Of a stretch of 64,000 nt of DNA, positions 46,717 to 56,527 are shown in pieces. Origin of the DNA: Microcoleaceae cyanobacterium. Its GTDB lineage: Bacteria; Cyanobacteriota; Cyanobacteriia; Cyanobacteriales; Microcoleaceae. The stretch covers positions 1 through 64,000 of the forward strand of contig JBOFUV010000022.1 of NCBI GenBank assembly GCA_051652765.1, read 5' to 3'. The notes under the pieces are model-generated. The model was given only the letters and a program-made list of their open reading frames with translations. It did not search any database and was not told the DNA's origin. The position numbers and the translations under genes were made by a program. The number at the start of each line of letters is the position of its first letter. Within the stretch, counting starts at the first letter, position 1.

Positions 46717-47060
46717 GGCGTTGCTGAAAGAGTAATGCTTGGTTTGGTATTACATATAGTGGGATGAAATGTCCTTAATGTGATTCAACTCAAACAAGCA
46801 AAAACAGACACCGTCTTGACAGACAAGGCTTACAAGTGTAAGCAGTGTGGTCGTCAATTCCTCAAATCTTACAGACCTTGGCACTACTCGCAGGAAGTCA
46901 AGCAACCGTGTATCAAAATGTATCTCAACGGTATGGGACTGCGAGGCATCGAACGAGTCATCAAGATTGGATTCGAGCAACCAGACATCAAATAGAGGAT
47001 GCCCCAGAGGTAGAAGAGATTCCAGAACTCACTGACCTCGATGAACTACAAAATTATCTT
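46717..47060 (+). mobile_element. IS1-family transposase remnant
   Basis: YKCKQCGRQF zinc ribbon, YSQEVKQPCIKMYLNGMGLRGIERV HTH, then a frameshifted EIPELTDLDELQ; GGCGTTGCTGAA end at 46717. Confidence 0.85.
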
Positions 47061-47097
47061 GAAGCAGGCGATCTATTAGATGAATTCTTAGATCATT

Positions 47098-47153
47098 TTC
47101 TAAGTGTTAAGTTCTAAGTGTTAAGTTCTAAGTGTTAAGTTCTAAGTGTTAAG
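47098..47153. repeat. Tandem repeat, 4 x TTCTAAGTGTTAAG
   Basis: Four exact 14-mers. Confidence 0.95.
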
Positions 47154-47220
47154 TGTGAGCAAGCGATCGCCGAATTAGACCCTGGAAAAGTAGCTGTTCA
47201 AGGTTGGGTGAAATGCGAAT

Positions 47221-47286
47221 GCGGGTTTAGTATGAGATCAATGCGGGTTTGGTATGAGATCAACGCGGGTTTGGTATGAGATCAAC
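47221..47286. repeat. Tandem repeat, 3 x 22 bp GCGGGTTT(A/G)GTATGAGATCAA(T/C)
   Basis: Units at 47221, 47243 and 47265; related reverse-strand copy at 13258-13289. Confidence 0.9.
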
Positions 47287-47486
47287 GGGCAAATGCTCTG
47301 CCATCAACTTGATCTGAGTGTGAGATCAATGGGGATTCGATGAACGATCAATCTGAACTTAAACGTAACCCACTATGGATCTATTCAATGATTGATCTAG
47401 AAATAGCTTCTTCCATCATAGTGCTTGAGTCGAATCACATCGAGCACCTGATCCAACAGCTTTTTGGGGCGTTGTTCCATTGCGGA

Positions 47487-47716
47487 ATAGACGGAAAGTT
47501 TCAGTCTAAAATTTATAAATCGATGCTAAGCCGAAAAAACCTGAATAACCTGAGGAAATATACGGAAAATTTCCATCTAATCCACTATTTTGGACTGGTT
47601 AGACTGCAAGTTTCAGCCTAATCTGCTTTAAAGTGCGCGTTAGACTGAAAAAGTCAGACTAACGTACTCAAATAGTGCGGTTAGACTGAAAATTTCAACC
47701 TAATAACTAGTTATGC
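47487..47716. repeat. Array of 23-bp imperfect palindromes (TTAGACTGAAAnTTTCAGnCTAA consensus) at 41-bp period, ending 6 nt before a GTTATGC cassette junction
   Basis: Units at 47558, 47599, 47640 and 47681, plus one at 47487. Confidence 0.85.
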
Positions 47717-47914
47717 CGCAAGTCCTCGGTGGGGACGTAATCTAGAGACAATGGGTGAGATGAGATCGCTCAACCCGCCCTAGAGGATTATCGGCATTAC
47801 TTGCTATATTTGTTGCTCTGGGATAGCAATATGTAAGTCAGAATCAAGAATAAGTGGCAATATTAGGAACTAGCCCTCAATGTGCCCAAGCTTCATGATT
47901 CTAGGAGTCGCGAT

Positions 47915-49645
47915 ATGTCTAGATTGCTGGTGACACAGTACCAGGCGGAGGTTGAAAAGATCATTCGCTATGGCGGTTCCAAGAAGGAAACCAGCATTCG
48001 CAATGCCTTTGAGCGATTGTTGAATGACTATTGCAAGCCCCGCAACTATCTGCTGATCCCAGAACTGGCCTTTAAGACCAAGTTCAATACGACAGTTGTT
48101 CCCGATGGCACGGTGAAGGATGCCATTCGTCTGGAGCATGGCTGGTGGGAAAGTAAAGACCCATACGACAAGCTTGATGTAGAAATCGAGAAGAAGCTAG
48201 AGAAGGGCTATCCCGATGAAAATATCCTGTTTGAAGACTCCCAAGCAGCGGTACTAATTCAGCACAGTCGAGAGCAGTTGCGCGTTTCTATGCGGGATGC
48301 GGCAGCGCTAGATGGGCTAATCAGCACGTTTGTAGACTACGAACGACCCGAAGTGCGCGACTTTCGGGCGGCGATCGTCAAGTTTAAGGAAGATGTCCCG
48401 CATATTTTGGAAGCCTTGCGGAGCATTATTGCTCAGCAGGAGGAGAGTAATTCCCAATTTAGAGAACGCCGCAACACCTTCCTAGAGGTGTGTCGCCAGT
48501 CGATTAACCCGGAAATTGAGATCTTCGATATCCATGAAATGTTGATTCAACATATTCTCACGGAGGATATTTTCACCAATATTTTCCATGAGTCGCAGTT
48601 TCACCGGGAAAACAACATTGCGCGCGAACTGTCGGAGATAATCAACACCTTTTTCACCGGAGCGACCCGCAAAAACACGCTCAAAAGCATCGAACACTAT
48701 TATGCGGTGATTCGTCGCCATTCGGAAAACATTGTCAACCACCACGAAAAGCAGAAGTTTCTTAAGGCGATCTACGAGAATTTTTACAAAGCCTATAACC
48801 CTAAGGCGGCGGATCGGTTGGGGATTGTCTATACGCCCAATGAAATCGTCCGCTTCATGATTGAAAGTGCGGATTATTTGACCCATAAGCACTTTGGCAA
48901 GTTGTTGAGCGATCGCGGAGTGGAGATTCTTGACCCTTGCACGGGGACAGGCACCTATGTGACGGAACTGATTGAATATTTGCCAGCGGATAAGCTAGAG
49001 CATAAATATAAGCACGAAATTCACTGCAATGAAGTGGCGATTTTGCCCTATTACATTGCTAATTTGAATATTGAGTTTACCTATCAGCAAAAGATGGGTA
49101 AGTACGAAGAATTTAAAAATATTTGTTTAGTGGATACATTGGATCACTGCACCTCTGAAGGACATCAATTTGATCTATTTGCCATGAGTGTGCAAAATAC
49201 GGCACGGATTCAGCAGCAAAATGAAAAGACCATCTCGGTCATCATTGGCAATCCACCCTATAACGCCCACCAGGAAAACTTCAACCAGCGCAACGCCAAT
49301 CGCCTTTACAAAGGGATTGATAAAGCCATTAAGGAAACCTACATTAAAGAGGGAACGGCTCAAAATCAGATCGTTGTTTACGATATGTACACCCGCTTCT
49401 TTCGTTGGGCATCAGACAGGCTCGGTCAAAATGGCATTATTGCCTTTATTACCAATCGATCGTTTATTGATGCTAAAGCATTTGATGGCTTTCGTAAGTG
49501 TATTGAAAGAGAATTTGATTATGCATACATTGTCGATATTGGCGGGGATATTCGTTCTGGAGACACCAGTGGTAATGTTTTCGATATTAAACTAGGGGTT
49601 GCGGTGATGTTTTTAGTAAGAATAAAAAAGGAGAAAAGAGTATGA
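47915..49645 (+). CDS. Restriction-modification enzyme, N-terminal part: PD-(D/E)xK nuclease-like domain + N6-adenine methyltransferase (Type IIG/IIL, Type ISP-related, no helicase)
   Basis: VPDGTVK...WWESKD; GIVYTP; ILDPCTGTG; IGNPPY; AGGAG before ATG 47915. Confidence 0.85.
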   Translation: MSRLLVTQYQAEVEKIIRYGGSKKETSIRNAFERLLNDYCKPRNYLLIPELAFKTKFNTTVVPDGTVKDAIRLEHGWWESKDPYDKLDVEIEKKLEKGYPDENILFEDSQAAVLIQHSREQLRVSMRDAAALDGLISTFVDYERPEVRDFRAAIVKFKEDVPHILEALRSIIAQQEESNSQFRERRNTFLEVCRQSINPEIEIFDIHEMLIQHILTEDIFTNIFHESQFHRENNIARELSEIINTFFTGATRKNTLKSIEHYYAVIRRHSENIVNHHEKQKFLKAIYENFYKAYNPKAADRLGIVYTPNEIVRFMIESADYLTHKHFGKLLSDRGVEILDPCTGTGTYVTELIEYLPADKLEHKYKHEIHCNEVAILPYYIANLNIEFTYQQKMGKYEEFKNICLVDTLDHCTSEGHQFDLFAMSVQNTARIQQQNEKTISVIIGNPPYNAHQENFNQRNANRLYKGIDKAIKETYIKEGTAQNQIVVYDMYTRFFRWASDRLGQNGIIAFITNRSFIDAKAFDGFRKCIEREFDYAYIVDIGGDIRSGDTSGNVFDIKLGVAVMFLVRIKKEKRV

Positions 49646-49968
49646 TACAACCAACCATTCTAGAAAAGCTGGAAAAGCTACCTGAATCACTCCAAACAGA
49701 AGTACTCCATTACATTGAATTTCTGCTGGAGAAACAGACAACACGACCTATCCAAGAAGAAACGCCAAAGAAACGCCGTTTGGCTGGTTCTATGAAAGGC
49801 ACTTTCGTTTTACCATTACCAGAGGGTTTCGGTGCATCTTTGGAACTAACGAACCCTGCCGATCAAGCTGCTGACGAAAAAAAGTATGGCTATGGGAGCT
49901 TAGCTGGGAAAATTGTGATGTCTGATGATTTTGACGACCCTTTAGAAGACTTGAAGGATTATATGTAG
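49642..49968 (+). CDS. DUF2281-like antitoxin
   Basis: LEKLPESLQTEVLHYIEFL...GKIVMSDDFDDPLEDLKDYM. Confidence 0.85.
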   Translation: MIQPTILEKLEKLPESLQTEVLHYIEFLLEKQTTRPIQEETPKKRRLAGSMKGTFVLPLPEGFGASLELTNPADQAADEKKYGYGSLAGKIVMSDDFDDPLEDLKDYM

Positions 49969-49969
49969 T

Positions 49970-50359
49970 ATGACAGTCCTTTTAGACACTCATGTCGTGC
50001 TTTGGTATATGACAAAGAATCCTAGATTAAGTCTGAAAGCTAGAGAAATAATTGAAGCGAAATCTGGATTAATTTTCAGCATGGCTAGCCTATGGGAAAT
50101 CACCATTAAGCTCAATATTGGAAAGCTTCAGATTGATTGCTCTTTCGATGATTTAGTAGATCGAGTAGCTGTCATGAGGGCTGAGATTTTGCCAATTGAT
50201 ATTGAAGACACCCGAACTTATCTTGGTTTACCTTTGCTGTCTGATCACCGTGATCCCTTTGACCGAATTTTAGTGGCTCAAGCAATGAATTATTCGCTAG
50301 ATATTGTGAGCGGAGATAACAAGTTTGATCTGTATCCAATTCAGCGTGTGTGGTCATGA
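49970..50359 (+). CDS. PIN-domain (VapC-family) toxin
   Basis: LLDTH, SLWEITIK, HRDPFDRILVAQA, SGD. Confidence 0.92.
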   Translation: MTVLLDTHVVLWYMTKNPRLSLKAREIIEAKSGLIFSMASLWEITIKLNIGKLQIDCSFDDLVDRVAVMRAEILPIDIEDTRTYLGLPLLSDHRDPFDRILVAQAMNYSLDIVSGDNKFDLYPIQRVWS

Positions 50360-51693
50360 GCAAAGCGAAGATCTTTTACTTTACGTTGCAGGATAAGCAG
50401 ACGAAGGAAGAAAAGCTCGACTGGTTTGAACGGACGCGGTTTGAGCAAATTCCGTTTGATCACATTACGCCCGATCAGAAGGCGAATTGGATTAATTTAA
50501 CCGATAACGATTTTGATATTCTTTTGCCGTTAATTGATAAAAGTGTAAAAGATGGTAGTTCAGAAGAAGCCATTTTTGTTCTCTTTTCAAGAGGAATTGA
50601 GACTACTAGAGATGAATGGGTTTATGACTTTAATCAATTAAACCTTGAGACAAAAATAAAATTCTTCATTGAGAAATATAATCTATGCATAAAGGAGGGT
50701 GAGTATAACTCAGAGATTAAATGGAGTTCATCACTAGATGAGCATCTGAAGAATAAACTCAAATTAAGTTTTCGAGCGAATAAGCTGATTACTATTGCAT
50801 ATAGACCTTATACTAAACAGCACTACTATGCTGATAAATTGTTGAGTCATAGATTAACGCAAAATCATTATGAAATTTTAGGGAAAGAGCTAAATGGTGA
50901 GAACCTTGTAATTTGGTTTAAGGTTGGTAGTGCTTGGGACTTTTTTGCTCTTAGTGTTAATTCTCTAAGTGATCTTTTGCCTCAAAGCGGGTCTCAATGT
51001 CTTCCCCTCTGCCGCTACGACGAAAACGGAAACCGCATCGACAACATCACAGACTGGGGCTTAACGCAATTCCAGACCCACTACAGCGACCCCACCATCA
51101 CTAAAGAAGCCATTTTCCACTACACCTACGCCGTTCTCCACCATCCCGCCTACCGCACCAAATACGAACTCAACCTCAAACGCGAATTTCCTCGCCTGCC
51201 CTTCTATGCCGACTTCCACCAATGGACAACCTGGGGCAAAGCCTTAATGGACTTGCACCTGAATTATGAAACCGTCGAACTCTATGGATTACGACGGGTC
51301 GATGTGGGACGCAAACAAGCAACCAGTGACTCGCCAATACAAGGAACATTGATCCTCACCGACCCACGTGATTCAGCCAAACCCACTAAACGCACCACAC
51401 CCAAAGCCAAACTCAAAGCCGACAAAACCGAAGGCAAAATCATCCTTGATACCGAAACCACCCTGGAAGGAGTCCCCGCCGTTGCCTGGGACTACAAACT
51501 CGGCAACCGCTCTGCCTTGGAATGGATACTTGACCAATACAAAGAAAAGACACCCAAAGATCCCACGATCGCCAAACTCTTCAACACTTACAAGTTTGCC
51601 GATTACAAAGAACACGTCATCGATTTGCTGCAACGGGTTTGCACCGTCAGCGTCAAAACAATGGAAATTATTCAACAGATGCCAACAGAGTGA
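50356..51693 (+). CDS. Restriction-modification enzyme, C-terminal specificity part (Type ISP/LlaBIII-like C-terminal domain)
   Basis: GIETTRDEWVY, YRPY, DNITDWGL, IFHYTYAVLH, REFPRLP, WDYKLGNRSALEWILDQY. Confidence 0.85.
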   Translation: MSKAKIFYFTLQDKQTKEEKLDWFERTRFEQIPFDHITPDQKANWINLTDNDFDILLPLIDKSVKDGSSEEAIFVLFSRGIETTRDEWVYDFNQLNLETKIKFFIEKYNLCIKEGEYNSEIKWSSSLDEHLKNKLKLSFRANKLITIAYRPYTKQHYYADKLLSHRLTQNHYEILGKELNGENLVIWFKVGSAWDFFALSVNSLSDLLPQSGSQCLPLCRYDENGNRIDNITDWGLTQFQTHYSDPTITKEAIFHYTYAVLHHPAYRTKYELNLKREFPRLPFYADFHQWTTWGKALMDLHLNYETVELYGLRRVDVGRKQATSDSPIQGTLILTDPRDSAKPTKRTTPKAKLKADKTEGKIILDTETTLEGVPAVAWDYKLGNRSALEWILDQYKEKTPKDPTIAKLFNTYKFADYKEHVIDLLQRVCTVSVKTMEIIQQMPTE

Positions 51694-51753
51694 GGAAGCA
51701 ACCATTGAATTGATAAATCAACCACTTGAAACATTAGGAACTGAACCCCCACC

Positions 51754-52332
51754 ATGACACAGGCACTTGAACAGCGAATCTACACCCCCGATGAGTACCT
51801 TGAACTTGAACTTGCATCTGAAACCCGAAGTGAATACCGCAATGGAGTTATTATTTCTATGACCGGGGGCACGCCTGACCATAATGAATTAGCAATTAAT
51901 CTTGCATCCCTCCTCAAATCTGCTTTGCGAGGCAAAGCCTATAGGATTTTCGGAGCCGATCAACGGCTTTGGATTCCTAATCGCAATCTTTACACCTATC
52001 CCGATGTTATGATTGTCGAAAAACTGCTACAGCTTCAAACAGGGTGTACCGACACCGTGACAAATCCCTGCTTTATTGCTGAAGTGCTATCCAAATCAAC
52101 CCAAGATTATGATCATGGCGAAAAGTTTTCTGCTTACCGTACTATTGACAGCTTTCGCGAATATCTGCTCATCGATCAGTACAGTATCCATATAGAACAC
52201 TATGTGAAAACGGCTGCTAATCAATGGCTGCTATCAGAATACGATGATCCGAATGTCACATTGTCCTTGAGTGCATTTGAAGCTCAAATCGAAATCACTG
52301 CTCTCTATGAAAACATTGACATTGATGCTTGA
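51754..52332 (+). CDS. Uma2-family endonuclease
   Basis: RSEYRNG, YTYPDV, AEVLSKST, DHGEKF, EYLLIDQ. Confidence 0.9.
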   Translation: MTQALEQRIYTPDEYLELELASETRSEYRNGVIISMTGGTPDHNELAINLASLLKSALRGKAYRIFGADQRLWIPNRNLYTYPDVMIVEKLLQLQTGCTDTVTNPCFIAEVLSKSTQDYDHGEKFSAYRTIDSFREYLLIDQYSIHIEHYVKTAANQWLLSEYDDPNVTLSLSAFEAQIEITALYENIDIDA

Positions 52333-52357
52333 TAAAACAGTGAGGGCGATCGCAGCG

Positions 52358-52462
52358 GCATAACAAGTCGTTGTAACGGAATTTTGAGAGCGGATTTGAG
52401 ATTGTGGGTGGGTTTCAAAAATTATCGCCGCTCTCAAAATCCGCTGAAATTGGTCGTTATCT
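52358..52462 (+). other. attC-like integron cassette recombination site 1
   Basis: R'' GCATAAC ... R' GTTATCT; stem CGGAATTTTGAGAGCGG / CCGCTCTCAAAATCCG with one unpaired extra base; 105 bp. Confidence 0.8.
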
Positions 52463-52586
52463 TGCCAGCGCACCACAGTTCCCTGTGGAGTTGAACCGAA
52501 GGGCGACTGACTATGTTGAGAGAGGGTTTGCATCATCTGCGCTGGTCGTTTTGCTGAGTTAAGAAACAGTCAGCTCGCCCAAGTCA

Positions 52587-52673
52587 AGCTAACCAATCAC
52601 TGCACTCGACCCGCAATAGTATTATTGGATTAATTCTGAAGCTGTTGGCGGCGGGTGAGTTCAACCGTTGGGC
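52587..52673 (+). other. attC-like site 2
   Basis: AGCTAAC-CAATCACTGCACTCGACCCGC ... GCGGGTGAGTTCAACC-GTTGGGC; 87 bp. Confidence 0.8.
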
Positions 52674-52717
52674 TGCTTTCTTGTTTTAATGACATTCATA
52701 TTAGATGGTGAACAATT

Positions 52718-53113
52718 ATGAGTTCAAGTCAGCAGTTTCTGCAAAATTTATACGAAGCCTTCAACAAAGGCGAGATTGAAACAATCATCTCGGTGATGCA
52801 CCCGGACGTGAAATGGGCGAACGGGGTGGAAGGCGGTTTCGTTTATGGACGCGACGCGGTGCGCGAATACTGGATCAATCAATATAAGGTTATTCAAGTG
52901 CAGCTTGAAACCTTAAAATTCGAGACAGATGAAAACAATCGAAATGTCGTTACCGTTCATCAAATCGTCAGAGATTTGCAAGGCAATTTGCTCGCGGATG
53001 CAACAATTCAGCAAATCTTTACCATTGAGAATAGTTTGATTAGTCTTTATGAAATTGGCGAAACCGAAACAATCCAAGAGATGATTCAAAAGACGAGAAC
53101 TCCCAATGAGTAA
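52718..53113 (+). CDS. SnoaL/NTF2-like protein (cassette gene)
   Basis: LYEAFN...MHPDVKWAN...GRDAVREYW...VHQIVRDLQG. Confidence 0.85.
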   Translation: MSSSQQFLQNLYEAFNKGEIETIISVMHPDVKWANGVEGGFVYGRDAVREYWINQYKVIQVQLETLKFETDENNRNVVTVHQIVRDLQGNLLADATIQQIFTIENSLISLYEIGETETIQEMIQKTRTPNE

Positions 53114-53115
53114 TT

Positions 53116-53220
53116 GGGAAGGCAGTTACAATTCGAGCCGTTGCTTTTACCGATCGCAATGAAGAGGGGTTAGTAACTTCGGTCAGATTCTATACAGACA
53201 CTTCACCGCTATTTGCATAA
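53116..53220 (+). pseudogene. C-terminal fragment of a second SnoaL-like gene
   Basis: GKAVTIRAVAFTDRNEEGLVTSVRFYTDTSPLFA*, no start, stop just before attC 3. Confidence 0.5.
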
Positions 53221-53225
53221 TCGCA

Positions 53226-53313
53226 GCCCAACAATCCGCTTGCACTCGACCGTTTAGAACCTTTTCGTTGAATCCGAGAGGGTACTGGCGGCGGGTGAGT
53301 TCAACCGTTGGGC
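53226..53313 (+). other. attC-like site 3
   Basis: GCCCAAC ... GTTGGGC; 3' ~30 bp identical to site 2; GCAGCCCAAC complements the cassette start GTTGGGCTGC at 52667. Confidence 0.85.
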
Positions 53314-53375
53314 TGCTTCATATCTCGGTAGAGACAGTGGCGAGAGATAGACTGTTAGTATTTCCAAGTGAGTAG

Positions 53376-53849
53376 ATGAAGTACAGAACAGCCGATGAAA
53401 GTGATGTAGTTACTCTCGCAGAGATGCGGTGGGAATTTCAGACTGAGGACAATGACAACCCACCCATTGTTAGCAAGACTGAATTTGTAGAAGTTTGTAG
53501 TAATTTCCTACGACAGGGGTTGATCCAGAAGAACTGGGTTTACTGGATAGCCGAGGTAGAGAGAGAAATCGTTTCTCACATCTTTGTACAACGGGTTAGG
53601 GGAGTTCCAAGACCGTTCTGGCTAAACAATGCCTACGGCTATGTTTCAAATGTCTATACCAAGCCTGCCTACCGCAGACAAGGGATTGGAACAGAATTGA
53701 TGCAGCAAGTGCTGAATTGGGCAAGGCATCAAGAGATCGATGTTCTCATCGTCAGTATCAGTGAAGAGAGCGTAACCTTCTATGAACGTGCAGGCTTCAC
53801 AGCCAAGAATGAATGGATGGAGTGCATAATTAAGAACTATCCCGGTTGA
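53376..53849 (+). CDS. GNAT family N-acetyltransferase (cassette gene)
   Basis: NVYTKPAYRRQGIG, FYERAGF. Confidence 0.9.
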   Translation: MKYRTADESDVVTLAEMRWEFQTEDNDNPPIVSKTEFVEVCSNFLRQGLIQKNWVYWIAEVEREIVSHIFVQRVRGVPRPFWLNNAYGYVSNVYTKPAYRRQGIGTELMQQVLNWARHQEIDVLIVSISEESVTFYERAGFTAKNEWMECIIKNYPG

Positions 53850-53857
53850 GAGAGCAA

Positions 53858-53924
53858 ATGTTCCAAATTGATTTCACACCAGATGCGTTAGAGGATTTAC
53901 AACTTTTTAGACCATATGAACAAC
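53858..53924 (+). pseudogene. 5' fragment of a RelE/ParE-like toxin gene, cut at an inverted attC
   Basis: MFQIDFTPDALEDLQLFRPYEQ ends at the minus-strand GTT of attC 4. Confidence 0.6.
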
Positions 53925-54006
53925 GGCCTTGAGTTGAGCCGACGCAGATAGACTTTGGAACTCAGCCGATCACTTTAATACGTTCGGCTCCAACGATTGG
54001 TTAGCT
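53918..54006 (-). other. attC-like site 4 (inverted)
   Basis: Minus strand AGCTAAC-CAATCGTTGGAGCCGAACG ... CGTCGGCTCAACTCAAGGCC-GTTGTTC; stem with one extra A; 89 bp. Confidence 0.78.
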
Positions 54007-54221
54007 GGCTGGCGCTGAGCAACCTGCATCAATAGTCGTAATGCCTCGTTTACAGATTCTTCCGTAGGAAAAGCTTGAGATACGTCAGAATCAAGAAGAA
54101 CTAGATTTGTACCTGCTCGATAACGTTCAACATATTTTCCTCTTACGCCCCCACTGAGATGAGAGAAGTCATACTCAGGACGTAACTCATCTTCCATTTC
54201 GGCATCAATTTTCCTGTTCAT
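53970..54221 (-). CDS. BrnA-like antitoxin
   Basis: EDELRPEYDFS...GVRGKY...VLLDSDV...SVNEALR; overlaps brnT. Confidence 0.8.
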   Translation of the reverse strand: MNRKIDAEMEDELRPEYDFSHLSGGVRGKYVERYRAGTNLVLLDSDVSQAFPTEESVNEALRLLMQVAQRQPANQSLEPNVLK

Positions 54222-54480
54222 AGAACCTCCTTTCTGGTCGAGTCGCTTTTCGGGCGCTAATAATTCGTATGGTTTCTCCTCGGTCAGCATGAGCAACCAT
54301 TAGAAGCTGTTCAAACCTAGATACACCAATAATAACGTAACGGCTCTCTTCAATCGAATGATCTGGGTCGGGAAAGGTTACTGACAGCGAATCGTTAAAT
54401 ACAGTCGCCGCTTCTTCAAAGGAAACACCGTGTTTTCGATAGTTTGACTCAGCTTTGTCTGGGTTCCACTCAAATTCCAT
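54205..54480 (-). CDS. BrnT-family toxin
   Basis: MEFEWNPDKAESNYRKHGVSFEEA, IRIISARKAT. Confidence 0.92.
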   Translation of the reverse strand: MEFEWNPDKAESNYRKHGVSFEEAATVFNDSLSVTFPDPDHSIEESRYVIIGVSRFEQLLMVAHADRGETIRIISARKATRPERRFYEQEN

Positions 54481-54651
54481 GCGACATTGCTCACTATCCA
54501 TCAACCAAGTCTACCAACTAAATTTTCAGTCACACAATATAAATTTCATCTTTACGCAAAACTCTTACAAAGCACCCTGAAACACGATCTAGCAAAACGT
54601 CAAACTCGCTGTTTGGCATTCTCAGATCAAATGGAATCATATTAATTGGGA

Positions 54652-54837
54652 GTTCTGTATCCACGGCGAGGAATATGATTTATGAAAACCATTACCCTTC
54701 CAGAAAATCTTGCTGAGATTCGCTTGGTGTTTGAGCAAGCCAATGATGAAGACGTAATTATAAAATTGGCTGACGGGCGACAGTTCATGTTAAGTGCAAT
54801 TATCGTTTTGCAATTCAATTGTTTCAGCCTCTTATGA
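54652..54837 (+). pseudogene. 3' tail of the relE-like toxin (…IHGEEYDL*) and its truncated antitoxin (MKTITL… from 54682)
   Basis: ATGA overlap at 54682; MKTITLPENLAEIRLVFEQANDEDVIIKLADGRQFMLSAI, then loses similarity. Confidence 0.5.
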
Positions 54838-54851
54838 TACTAAACCAATTG

Positions 54852-55871
54852 CTAGCGTAGTAATTTCATTCCAGATGCTTTAGGGTCAAAGCCATCAGGA
54901 AAACGAGTAGGGCAAGGGTAAGCAGGAGAGGAAGTAATATCTAGACAGATGTTTTTGGGTGTTTTTGCGTCGGAGTAAAACGCCCCTTGCAGGTTAGCTC
55001 CATCCAGTTTTGCCCCTTGCAGATTGGCTCCACCCAGTCTTGCCCCTTGCAAATTGGCTTCCAACAGTCTTGCCCCTTGCAGATTAGCTTGCCACAGGAC
55101 TGCTCCTTGCAGATTAGCTTCAACTAAGCTGGCTCTGGGCAGTCGAACCTTTGCTAGATAAGCCTTTGCCAAGTCCACCCCATCTAAACTTTCAGCTTCC
55201 CACTTGGAACATAGCCAATCTTCAGATACACAGATCCAGGGGAAATGCAAACGCCAATTAGCCCCTGGTGAAGCATTCAAAAACTCTAGAGCAAGTATTC
55301 GTCCTCCGTTGCCACTTTGCCCTTGGGCGTTAGTTATCGTCTGCCACGCCAAATAAACTTGAGACTCACGACGCTGTTCCTCTAAACCGATATAAGTGAG
55401 TGCAGCAAATATAAGACCTAGGTTACCCAACAAACCCAACAAGCTGAGCAATGCCTGGTTCTCTCCCCAAGACAGTATGGGTTCCCAGATCCGCTTCTCC
55501 ATCTGGGTGAAAGGTTGAACGATGGAGTAAAGCTTTGACTTTAACGGAGGTTGTTCTGTCTCTTGCAGGCGCTGCTGAGAATCGATCAAGGTTTCAGAAT
55601 AATCAGGCTTGAGCTTTTTGGGGGTTGGCGTAGATGGCTGTTCATTACCTTTAGCATTAGCTGAATGGCACTGATCACGATCAGCCGCAAACTCCAAGCA
55701 GGCTCTTATATCAGTTTCTGTCAACTCCGGAAAATCGTCCATAATATCAGCGATAGACATACCAGCTGCAAGCCAAGCTAAAACCTCGTAAGCTGTAATC
55801 CGCGTCTGGCGAATGCAGGGCTTACCACCACGCTTATCGGGCTCAATCGTAATAATGTCGCGATAGCTCAT
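54852..55871 (-). CDS. DUF433 domain fused to a TM + pentapeptide-repeat protein
   Basis: IEPDKRGGKPCIR...DFPELTETDIRACLEFAAD; TM; ANLQG repeats. Confidence 0.8.
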   Translation of the reverse strand: MSYRDIITIEPDKRGGKPCIRQTRITAYEVLAWLAAGMSIADIMDDFPELTETDIRACLEFAADRDQCHSANAKGNEQPSTPTPKKLKPDYSETLIDSQQRLQETEQPPLKSKLYSIVQPFTQMEKRIWEPILSWGENQALLSLLGLLGNLGLIFAALTYIGLEEQRRESQVYLAWQTITNAQGQSGNGGRILALEFLNASPGANWRLHFPWICVSEDWLCSKWEAESLDGVDLAKAYLAKVRLPRASLVEANLQGAVLWQANLQGARLLEANLQGARLGGANLQGAKLDGANLQGAFYSDAKTPKNICLDITSSPAYPCPTRFPDGFDPKASGMKLLR

Positions 55872-55911
55872 AATATGGATAGGTTGTTTGTATATGCCTG
55901 AGTCTAGAGCA

Positions 55912-55998
55912 GGCTAACACCTCGCCGCAACGGACGGACGTTAGTTGGTCGGTCGAGAGCTGGAAGTTACTTGCCGCCGCTGAAGCGGAACGTTAGCT
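55912..55998 (+). other. attC-like site 5
   Basis: GGCTAAC-ACCTCGCCGCAACGGACGG ... CCGCCGCTGAAGCGGAAC-GTTAGCT; 87 bp. Confidence 0.72.
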
Positions 55999-56008
55999 GG
56001 ACAGGATC

Positions 56009-56470
56009 ATGACGAAGCTCAAAAATCGAGTCGGTAGCCAGGTCACCCTCTTCGGTCTGATAGCCTTCCTTCTCGTAACTCCAGCTTGTAATGGGAGTGA
56101 TGACCAACACCTCGCTGGACTCATCGCCGCTGAAGCTCAAAGAAGTGACCCTTCTATTGTTAGAATGTCTGCGCTGACTTCGTTTCCGTGGGAAAGGCTC
56201 TTCGTCTTTGCACCCTACACGACTGCTGAGGCAATCGAGGACGACCTAGGTTTTCAGTGGTCTCGATCAGACATGATCGAGATGGCCGACCATTTCTCTC
56301 TTTTGGTCTTCGTGAAGGACAAGAGTGTGGTGCGCTTTGTCGCGAAGTCCCGTAGCGGTGGAGACTTTGCGGAGTCATACCGTCAGGGTGGATTCTCGCG
56401 GGATGAAGCAGTGTTCCGTTGTTCAAAGGATTCGGCTGGGTGGCTACACTGTGTGGGAGGAGCCAGCTAA
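56009..56470 (+). CDS. Hypothetical lipoprotein (cassette gene)
   Basis: Lipobox-like LVTPAC; starts 8 nt after GTTAGCTGG; stop TAA lies inside the complementary CCAGCTAAC. Confidence 0.78.
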   Translation: MTKLKNRVGSQVTLFGLIAFLLVTPACNGSDDQHLAGLIAAEAQRSDPSIVRMSALTSFPWERLFVFAPYTTAEAIEDDLGFQWSRSDMIEMADHFSLLVFVKDKSVVRFVAKSRSGGDFAESYRQGGFSRDEAVFRCSKDSAGWLHCVGGAS

Positions 56471-56527
56471 CAGGCGGGTATAGTTCTGCACACATCTCCT
56501 CTGTCCACTCGCACCACAGGTCATGGC

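Follow-up and report, generated by a model that had tools for sequence, protein, structure and literature searches.

Introduction

IntegronFinder, presented in a 2016 paper that places the Cyanobacteria among integron hosts, clusters attC sites lying within 4 kb of each other, a distance described there as double the length of the biggest cassettes then known (~2 kb) (PMC4889954). A RefSeq survey built on this tool reports that defence systems carried in cassettes never exceed two components and have shorter genes (Darracq et al., 10.1101/2024.07.02.601686), and restriction-modification (RM) functions in cassettes are already on record (PMC8618304). Cassette size is thought to be limited by the making and the recombination of cassettes, and how they are made is treated as an open question (PMC5371416, PMC8618304). 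Synthetic cassettes have been tested with up to 3,060 bp of insert, their length limit being deemed not stringent (PMC5371416), and a capture screen recovered all cassettes except one whose attC sites lie 4 kbp apart (10.64898/2026.03.17.712381). Dead integrases and frozen arrays have been described in Xanthomonas (10.1101/2025.06.18.660453). Among restriction enzymes, DrdV is a Type IIL enzyme consisting of one chain of 1029 aa whose methyltransferase (MTase) domain spans residues 295-635 (PDB 7LO5/7LVV; 10.1101/2021.01.06.425610). Here we analyze a stretch of 64,000 nucleotides (the window) from a Microcoleaceae cyanobacterium (assembly GCA_051652765.1, contig JBOFUV010000022.1, positions 1 to 64,000), in which a five-gene operon of anti-phage type constitutes a single integron gene cassette of 4,746 bp (47711-52456, plus strand). 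The operon encodes the two halves of a DrdV-like RM enzyme, a putative toxin-antitoxin (TA) pair between them and a Uma2-family putative nuclease.

Limits of the cassette

An original prediction, made from the sequence alone, had noted that the 10-mer GTTATGCCGC at 47710-47719, some 200 bp upstream of the RM gene, has its exact complement at 52355-52364, and had proposed that the genes in between form one excisable cassette. Both coordinates proved right when rechecked in the sequence, and the RM start codon lies at 47915, 205 bp downstream of 47710. The GTT that starts the next cassette is located at 52456, and the R'' box of the closing attC site (attC1) is complementary to the cassette's own 5' end at 10/10 positions, as are only about 1% of the non-cognate pairs of cassette start and R''. 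The 10-mer match is hence real, but weak as stand-alone evidence: in the genome (5.04 Mb) it occurs 21 times, where base composition predicts 8.0, no fewer than 14 of the occurrences lie inside att sites as judged by eye, and 3 of 60 attC sites have an R'' end identical to that of attC1. The 10-mer was consequently rejected as sole proof of a cassette, being common at att sites of this genome, and the case relies on other evidence. In particular, the end match goes beyond chance because an attI site has its crossover at position 47710, so that the unit starts, as cassettes do, at a G|TT crossover. The end rule that had also been read in smaller cassettes of the array was recovered for GTTGGGCTGC/GCAGCCCAAC at 52667/53223; the pair GTTAGCTGG/CCAGCTAAC does match at 55992/56463, but the last attC there is reduced to its R'' end.

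The attI site (47598..47716, plus strand) encompasses three repeats starting with GTTAGAC (at 47598, 47639 and 47680) and a core, with the crossover G|TT at 47710|47711. After a pattern search, 22 attI crossovers were identified in the genome, on 19 contigs. Conservation is shared by 19-22 of the 22 copies over the nine bases before the G and by 7-13 of 22 from ten bases after it, figures that are partly circular insofar as some copies were selected by pattern. Among the 18 copies anchored in the integrase gene intI, 17 end in the common core and GTT, and then diverge.

The closing site, attC1 (52358..52462, plus strand), is a 105-bp site of the long-stem type that scores 52 bits in a covariance model and folds on the bottom strand with z=-3.99. 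It presents R'', L'', L' and R' boxes, extrahelical bases, a bottom-strand hairpin, the invariant unpaired C and a covarying L box, with one C.A mismatch in the L box where two paralogous sites pair; the site is slightly decayed. An nhmmer profile from 31 sites of the genome identified 85 attC at E<0.001, and a covariance model from 37 sites identified 80 at E<=0.01 among 150 candidates scored, both having been trained on the genome's own sites, those of the window and attC1 itself included. In the attC alignment 85% of the cells pair, and covariation amounts to 0.32, against 0.13 when shuffled and at most 0.11 when slid.

Three scans addressed the interior of the cassette, and the earlier statement that it holds no other attC-like hairpin stood up to all of them. 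With filters off, the covariance model returned five attC sites of 52-66 bits over positions 40000-64000, and its best match inside the cassette (7.8 bits, E=5) does not amount to an internal attC; the nhmmer profile found none inside the cassette at E<=10. A hand-made stem scorer reached at best 13.7 in the interior, below the 17.5-21.8 of true sites, in a scan that is weak because shuffled sequences reached 19.6. With no attC between the attI crossover and attC1, the segment 47711-52456 is therefore one cassette.

Related cassettes in other genomes

The comparative analysis covered homologous RM loci in the best 80 of 370 relatives. In three other genomes RM and Uma2 lie between a GTT start and an attC, over 4.0-4.8 kb and among different neighbours. 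Locus L098 (4,029 bp, ends matching at 10/10 positions) reads attC, GTTATGCCGC, an unsplit RM gene, Uma2 and attC. In L126 (4,097 bp, 10/10) the unit starts after the fifth attC of an array and contains an RM gene split by DUF2281-PIN, followed by Uma2 and attC, and in L109 (4,776 bp, 9/10) it follows an attI-like site and comprises an unsplit RM gene, a different TA pair, a remnant of the target-recognition domain (TRD), Uma2 and attC. The same unit thus recurs in different surroundings, as is characteristic of a cassette. The boundaries of L098, L126 and L109 coincide with GTT junctions, and the one-cassette reading of the original prediction is sustained by these orthologues, which begin at GTT and finish in attC, together with the lack of an internal attC.

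The orthologues also bear on the alternative that two or more cassettes (RM, TA and Uma2) fused here once the attC sites between them had been lost. In its favour, small cassettes typically hold TA pairs or single nucleases (10.1101/2024.07.02.601686), and 60 bp separate the RM stop codon from Uma2 in this locus. The corresponding gap is only 7 bp in L098 and L126, however, and neither the nhmmer profile nor the covariance model detects an attC remnant inside the cassette. Furthermore, the TA pair sits within one enzyme, joined to it by ATGA overlaps, and the 5' end of the cassette pairs with the R'' that follows Uma2. We regard a fusion as already largely refuted and highly improbable.

Among further loci, L144 has an attC just upstream and a different leader, and is cut off. 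As judged by eye, L089, L090, L091 and L115 start at the same point, each behind a decayed or attI-like site, and a decayed attC closes L096 and L091. The non-coding cassette leader (47711..47914, plus strand) aligns from the GTT to the start codon in the orthologous cassettes, and its whole 200 bp can be aligned both there and in L089, L090, L091 and L115. No consensus sigma-70 promoter was detected in the leader: a sigma-70 scan gave 7 sites against 10 expected, and none of the 7 lies there. A metagenome scan with the first 24 nt yielded four matches: L182 carries the full leader after an attI-like site, L184 lies after intI and attI and diverges past 31 nt, and the other two, L183 and L185, belong to cassettes with no relation to this one. 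The array is absent from the syntenic site in both congeners (G001 and G002), in which the query used recovered no close RM orthologue.

These observations allow an assessment of a second alternative, namely that a small cassette frame, consisting of the GTTATGCCGC leader and attC, took up an RM-Uma2 operon from the chromosome by recombination independent of the integron integrase IntI, and that the resulting unit was never moved whole by IntI. It is favoured by the leader's first ~28 nt, which begin unrelated cassettes, by the location of most RM homologues outside arrays, by a HIP1 octamer 1 bp before R'', and by the Vibrio cholerae cassette with attC sites 4 kbp apart that went unrecovered in the capture screen (10.64898/2026.03.17.712381). 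Nevertheless, the unit from leader through Uma2 to R'' is found after attI (here), after attC (L098, L126), after attI-like sites (L109, L182) and after decayed attC halves (L090, L115), and separate invasions would not reproduce the whole 200-bp leader and both ends. Such an invasion is improbable as an account of the present loci; it may describe how the cassette was first made.

The integrase-less attI platform

Upstream of attI, and divergent from the array, translation reveals a truncated integron integrase gene that retains the first 21 codons of intI (47418..47480, minus strand). The minus-strand open reading frame (ORF) that begins at 47480 runs through these codons into junk sequence and 22-bp repeats. 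This tract of 22-bp tandem repeats and shared junk sequence (47218..47340) replaces the rest of intI in many copies of the platform: the segment 47130-47340 has 121 blastn matches in the genome, the leftmost shared coordinate is 47218 in 8 of 22 platform copies, and one truncation point, beside the 22-bp tandem repeat, is common to 12 of the 18 intI-anchored copies. The locus hence is not a complete integron, with 21 codons in place of an intact intI beside attI. No intact IntI was detected in the source assembly, which has no TIGR02249 match above cut-off. In the congener G002, an intact IntI adjoins the same attI core, with 83% DNA identity over 47418-47713, and that genome combines nine matches to the platform with this one intact IntI. 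Across the family, IntI scores above the curated cut-off in 3 of 121 genomes.

Three further observations concern the platform and intI. The truncated intI-attI platform has itself been multiplied, three copies having a common left edge at a HIP1 octamer (47163). A weak IS1-like remnant lies just left of it (46780-47117; PF12759, E=0.0065). In another genome (L179-L180, G016:C1:4486109-4498212), three tandem intI copies each lie near attC sites.

Several findings weigh against the reading favoured here. The assembly encodes no intact IntI, the longest remnant being a frameshifted piece of 110 aa. The computed folding probability of attC1 is 0.007, and the attC body differs among orthologues, being of the 105-bp type here and of 85 bp in L098 and L126. 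An attC was detected in 4 of the 80 homologous loci and in none of the other 76, with a model that is lineage-trained and in loci many of which are short. Neither an excised circle nor an empty attI of the locus was seen. One of the three closed orthologues, L126, has a partly deleted and thus broken TRD. Finally, the first ~28 nt of the leader also begin unrelated cassettes (L183, L185) and therefore reflect a shared cassette start that, taken alone, is no marker of orthology. Moreover, the RM-TA module is not peculiar to the cassette, since those 76 loci lack a detected attC and a TA pair splits the enzyme in many.

The sequence evidence, namely attI, attC, complementary ends and the recurrence of this cargo at other array positions elsewhere, nonetheless shows that the segment at attI is a cassette that moved as a unit in the past. 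The term excisable accordingly stands in the historical sense but is doubtful at present, given the missing IntI, the L-box mismatch and the poor folding probability of attC1. As the assembly encodes no complete IntI, this strain probably holds the cassette in a frozen state, and present mobility would be doubtful unless an integrase were supplied in trans.

A DrdV-like enzyme split by a putative toxin-antitoxin pair

The first gene of the operon (47915..49645, plus strand) encodes a 576-aa protein comprising a nuclease, a helical connector and most of an N6-adenine MTase; it matches residues 1-583 of DrdV (7LO5, E=1e-196) and positions 6-584 of 1024 in the PADLOC IIG model. The fourth gene (50356..51693, plus strand; PF18135) encodes 445 aa that provide the last MTase strand and helices and the TRD, matching DrdV residues 588-1027 (E=9e-109). 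The genes originally read as a separate nuclease-MTase and specificity gene are thus better described as halves of one DrdV-like Type IIL enzyme. The domain order of this type (nuclease, connector, N6-MTase and TRD) is present with its catalytic motifs, including a PD..ExK-like motif, motif I and NPPY, in two ORFs of 576 and 445 aa with two genes between them instead of the single polypeptide of Type IIL. No helicase-like ATPase, as found in Type ISP enzymes, was detected among Pfam, PADLOC or PDB matches. The split corresponds to DrdV 583|588, with about four loop residues missing, and since the DrdV MTase spans residues 295-635, the cut falls in a loop within the MTase domain.

The intervening genes encode a DUF2281 protein, a putative antitoxin (49642..49968, plus strand; PF10047, E=7e-25), and a PIN-domain protein, a putative VapC-like RNase toxin (49970..50359, plus strand; PF01850, E=5e-16). 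DUF2281 lies directly upstream of PIN, 1 bp apart, in a VapBC-type arrangement. An ATGA overlap joins the RM stop to the DUF2281 start, and another joins the PIN stop to the start of the C-terminal half. The operon ends with the Uma2-family putative nuclease (51754..52332, plus strand; PF05685, E=2e-33), a PADLOC candidate (PDC-S03).

Among the 80 loci, 37 carry a fused enzyme, 30 are split with an insert, 6 are split with a short gap and 7 could not be assigned. TA pairs occupy 28 of the 30 inserts: DUF2281-PIN was identified in 20, DUF4258 with an MqsA-like gene in nine (one insert has both), and two have neither. In a more distant clade, genes for ParE, ParD, HicA, HicB-like and DUF4926 proteins occur at the same split place. 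A quick tree of 76 rows, four of the 80 loci being omitted for want of one long match, placed fused and split enzymes as sisters (L095/L108, L111/L118 and L101/L113), as well as enzymes with different inserts (L104/L154), with Shimodaira-Hasegawa-like approximate likelihood ratio test values of 96-99.

The position of the cut, within the MTase domain of what is otherwise one chain, raises the alternative that the cassette is real and its RM gene a pseudogene killed by TA insertion, leaving an addiction module in a dead shell and no defence operon. The second half is indeed broken in 3 of the 30 insert-split loci (L114, L126 and L154). On the other hand, the ratios of non-synonymous to synonymous substitutions against six split orthologues are 0.05-0.09 and 0.07-0.25 for the two halves, pairwise values that also cover the time before the split. 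The loss is limited to about four residues of the loop, six loci show a split with nothing but a short gap, and in 25 of the 30 insert-split loci the halves are open and coupled, with a second half of at least 415 aa; in two more the second half is cut by a contig end. A predicted complex of the two halves obtained a score of 0.87, against 0.00 for the best control; 51 of 78 solved pairs and 2 of 108 mismatched ones attained the mark, at least 69% of contacts were common to the runs, and the partner's predicted local distance difference test value was at least 85. In this model the first strand of the second half would return to the MTase sheet; likeness to the solved DrdV structure may explain both the score and this placement. 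A dead enzyme is an appreciable though unlikely alternative to a reassembling one.

Other features were observed at homologous RM loci. Downstream of the RM gene, L109 (9131-9361), L105, L120 and L142 have additional incomplete copies of its C-terminal half, which suggests TRD exchange by recombination. In L091 (10454-12361), an HUH-motif segment flanked by short palindromes lies in frame inside the TRD, and the same palindrome occurs at the split in L088 and L147; we take this segment to be RAYT-like.

The remaining array and other large cassettes of the genome

The second cassette (52457..52667, plus strand; attC 52587-52673) has 211 bp and no ORF. Copies with 92-98% identity occur at about ten other arrays, in many cases directly following another cassette or attI, and it may carry a promoter or a small RNA. 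The third (52668..53307, plus strand; attC 53226-53313) contains a SnoaL-like gene. The rest of the array (53308..56471) comprises a GNAT gene, an inverted attC, an attC at 55912-55998 and a last cassette with the reduced attC mentioned above. The inverted attC spans 53918-54006, and a BrnT-family gene and its partner lie on the minus strand (53970-54504).

Across the genome, 61 att-to-attC segments were identified, 43 of which have ends matching at 8/10 positions or more and a median of 1,058 bp. At 4,746 bp, the cassette is, as predicted, far above the typical size of single-gene cassettes. The three largest segments (6,203, 4,746 and 3,796 bp) are all first cassettes with 10-11 matched bases, and they share the 105-bp attC type. 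The 6.2-kb cassette (L059:1773-7982, G000:C34:179773-185982) carries eight genes in antisense, which encode an MTase, a type I-like S subunit, nucleotidyltransferase-HEPN, UPF0175-DUF3368 and HTH proteins and include TA-like pairs. The 3.8-kb cassette (L060:7941-11743, G000:C34:143941-147743, minus strand) carries a three-gene Lamassu system, LmuA, LmuC and LmuB, with a Cap4 nuclease as effector. Two Lamassu orthologues were identified among 300 genomes, one followed by a different attC (G338) and one without attC (G244). A 4.3-kb segment between two attC of contig G000:C50 encodes a single 1331-aa protein (L061:1826-5821) that combines a NACHT-like ATPase with TPR and CHAT parts.

Better folding of the 105-bp attC was considered as a reason why giant cassettes are permitted, and was not supported. 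Folding probability does not follow cassette size (rho 0.12, p=0.49, n=37); it is 0.08, 0.007 and 0.0009 for the three sites of 105 bp, and the orthologous giant cassettes carry 85-bp sites. A correlation with size does exist for the constrained folding energy (rho -0.53, p=7e-4), a relationship confounded by site length and by repeated cassette families.

Discussion

IntI joins a circular cassette to attI by recombination with the cassette's attC, which takes part as a folded bottom strand. The account that we consider very probable, from the sequence comparisons above, is that IntI placed the cassette at attI, that its genes form a coupled operon whose RM halves reassemble around an exchangeable TA pair, and that the cassette is now probably fixed. 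A circular cassette would have been inserted, through the folded bottom strand of its attC, into the attI of one of the 22 platforms. The five genes would constitute one translationally coupled operon read as a single message, and the two RM halves would come together as a DrdV-like enzyme, protecting host sites by methylation of one strand and cleaving foreign DNA that lacks it. At a surface loop of the enzyme, DUF2281-PIN would be an exchangeable passenger that most likely stabilizes the locus or aborts infection, with Uma2 as a putative accessory nuclease. RM and Uma2 would first have formed a ~4-kb cassette without TA, TA modules being gained and lost at the loop, probably via recombination between homologues. 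With intI dead and attC1 slightly decayed, the cassette would probably be fixed in the strain unless integrase comes in trans.

These elements can be joined in a wider proposal, which we advance tentatively and hold to be somewhat less probable than its failure in one part or another. Some cyanobacteria would run dispersed integrons, in which many attI platforms without an integrase of their own depend on a rare intact IntI acting in trans, and this IntI routinely moves defence cassettes of 4-6 kb that the 4-kb default misses, so that the rule of streamlined systems only would in part be an artefact. The insertion of cassettes and the later erosion of their att sites could be a main route of DrdV-like RM systems into cyanobacterial chromosomes, and the RM system would be a working two-piece enzyme with a reusable TA slot.

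The presence of natural 4-4.8-kb cassettes after attI, attC and decayed sites in several cyanobacterial genera, together with the 3.8- and 6.2-kb cassettes, shows that whole operons can be packaged. As attC sites are clustered at 4 kb in surveys, such giant cassettes may be under-counted, which points to a blind spot of surveys using this distance. The many non-cassette homologues of the cargo allow donor and product to be compared base by base. The repeated splitting of a Type IIL enzyme at one loop by different TA pairs is a separate finding.

Comparison with known systems

The locus belongs to an already known class, integron cassettes, of which it is an unusually large member. A literature search for very large cassettes and for TA-split IIG enzymes returned nothing matching; subscription papers fell mostly outside that search, and larger published cassettes are possible. 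Like the anti-phage cassettes reported by Darracq et al. (10.1101/2024.07.02.601686), it forms part of a chromosomal array and has genes of defence type flanked by attI and attC, but here five genes fill 4.75 kb and a sister cassette holds a three-gene Lamassu system. It also resembles the attC clusters that have no integron-integrase (CALIN) and the integrase-dead integrons described to date (PMC4889954; 10.1101/2025.06.18.660453) in having an array behind a truncated intI. In contrast to these, one genome here contains 22 attI platforms, 12 of the 18 intI-anchored copies sharing a truncation point, and the first cassette is longer than the 4 kb within which attC sites are clustered by default.

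The enzyme has the same domain order as DrdV and is collinear with it over nearly its full length; unlike the single 1029-aa chain of DrdV, it is encoded by two genes with a TA pair between them. Type ISP enzymes LlaBIII and LlaGI (PDB 4XQK, 5FFJ) have homologous coupler, MTase and TRD, but no helicase-like ATPase is present here and the matches start at residue 187. A TA-like pair, tvrAT, is likewise found among the specificity parts of an RM locus in the pneumococcal tvr (SpnIV) system, a Type I system with its own recombinase and repeats in which TvrAT is reported to have no clear addiction effect (PMC6265443). The locus described here differs from tvr in having no local recombinase and in that several TA families use the same loop.

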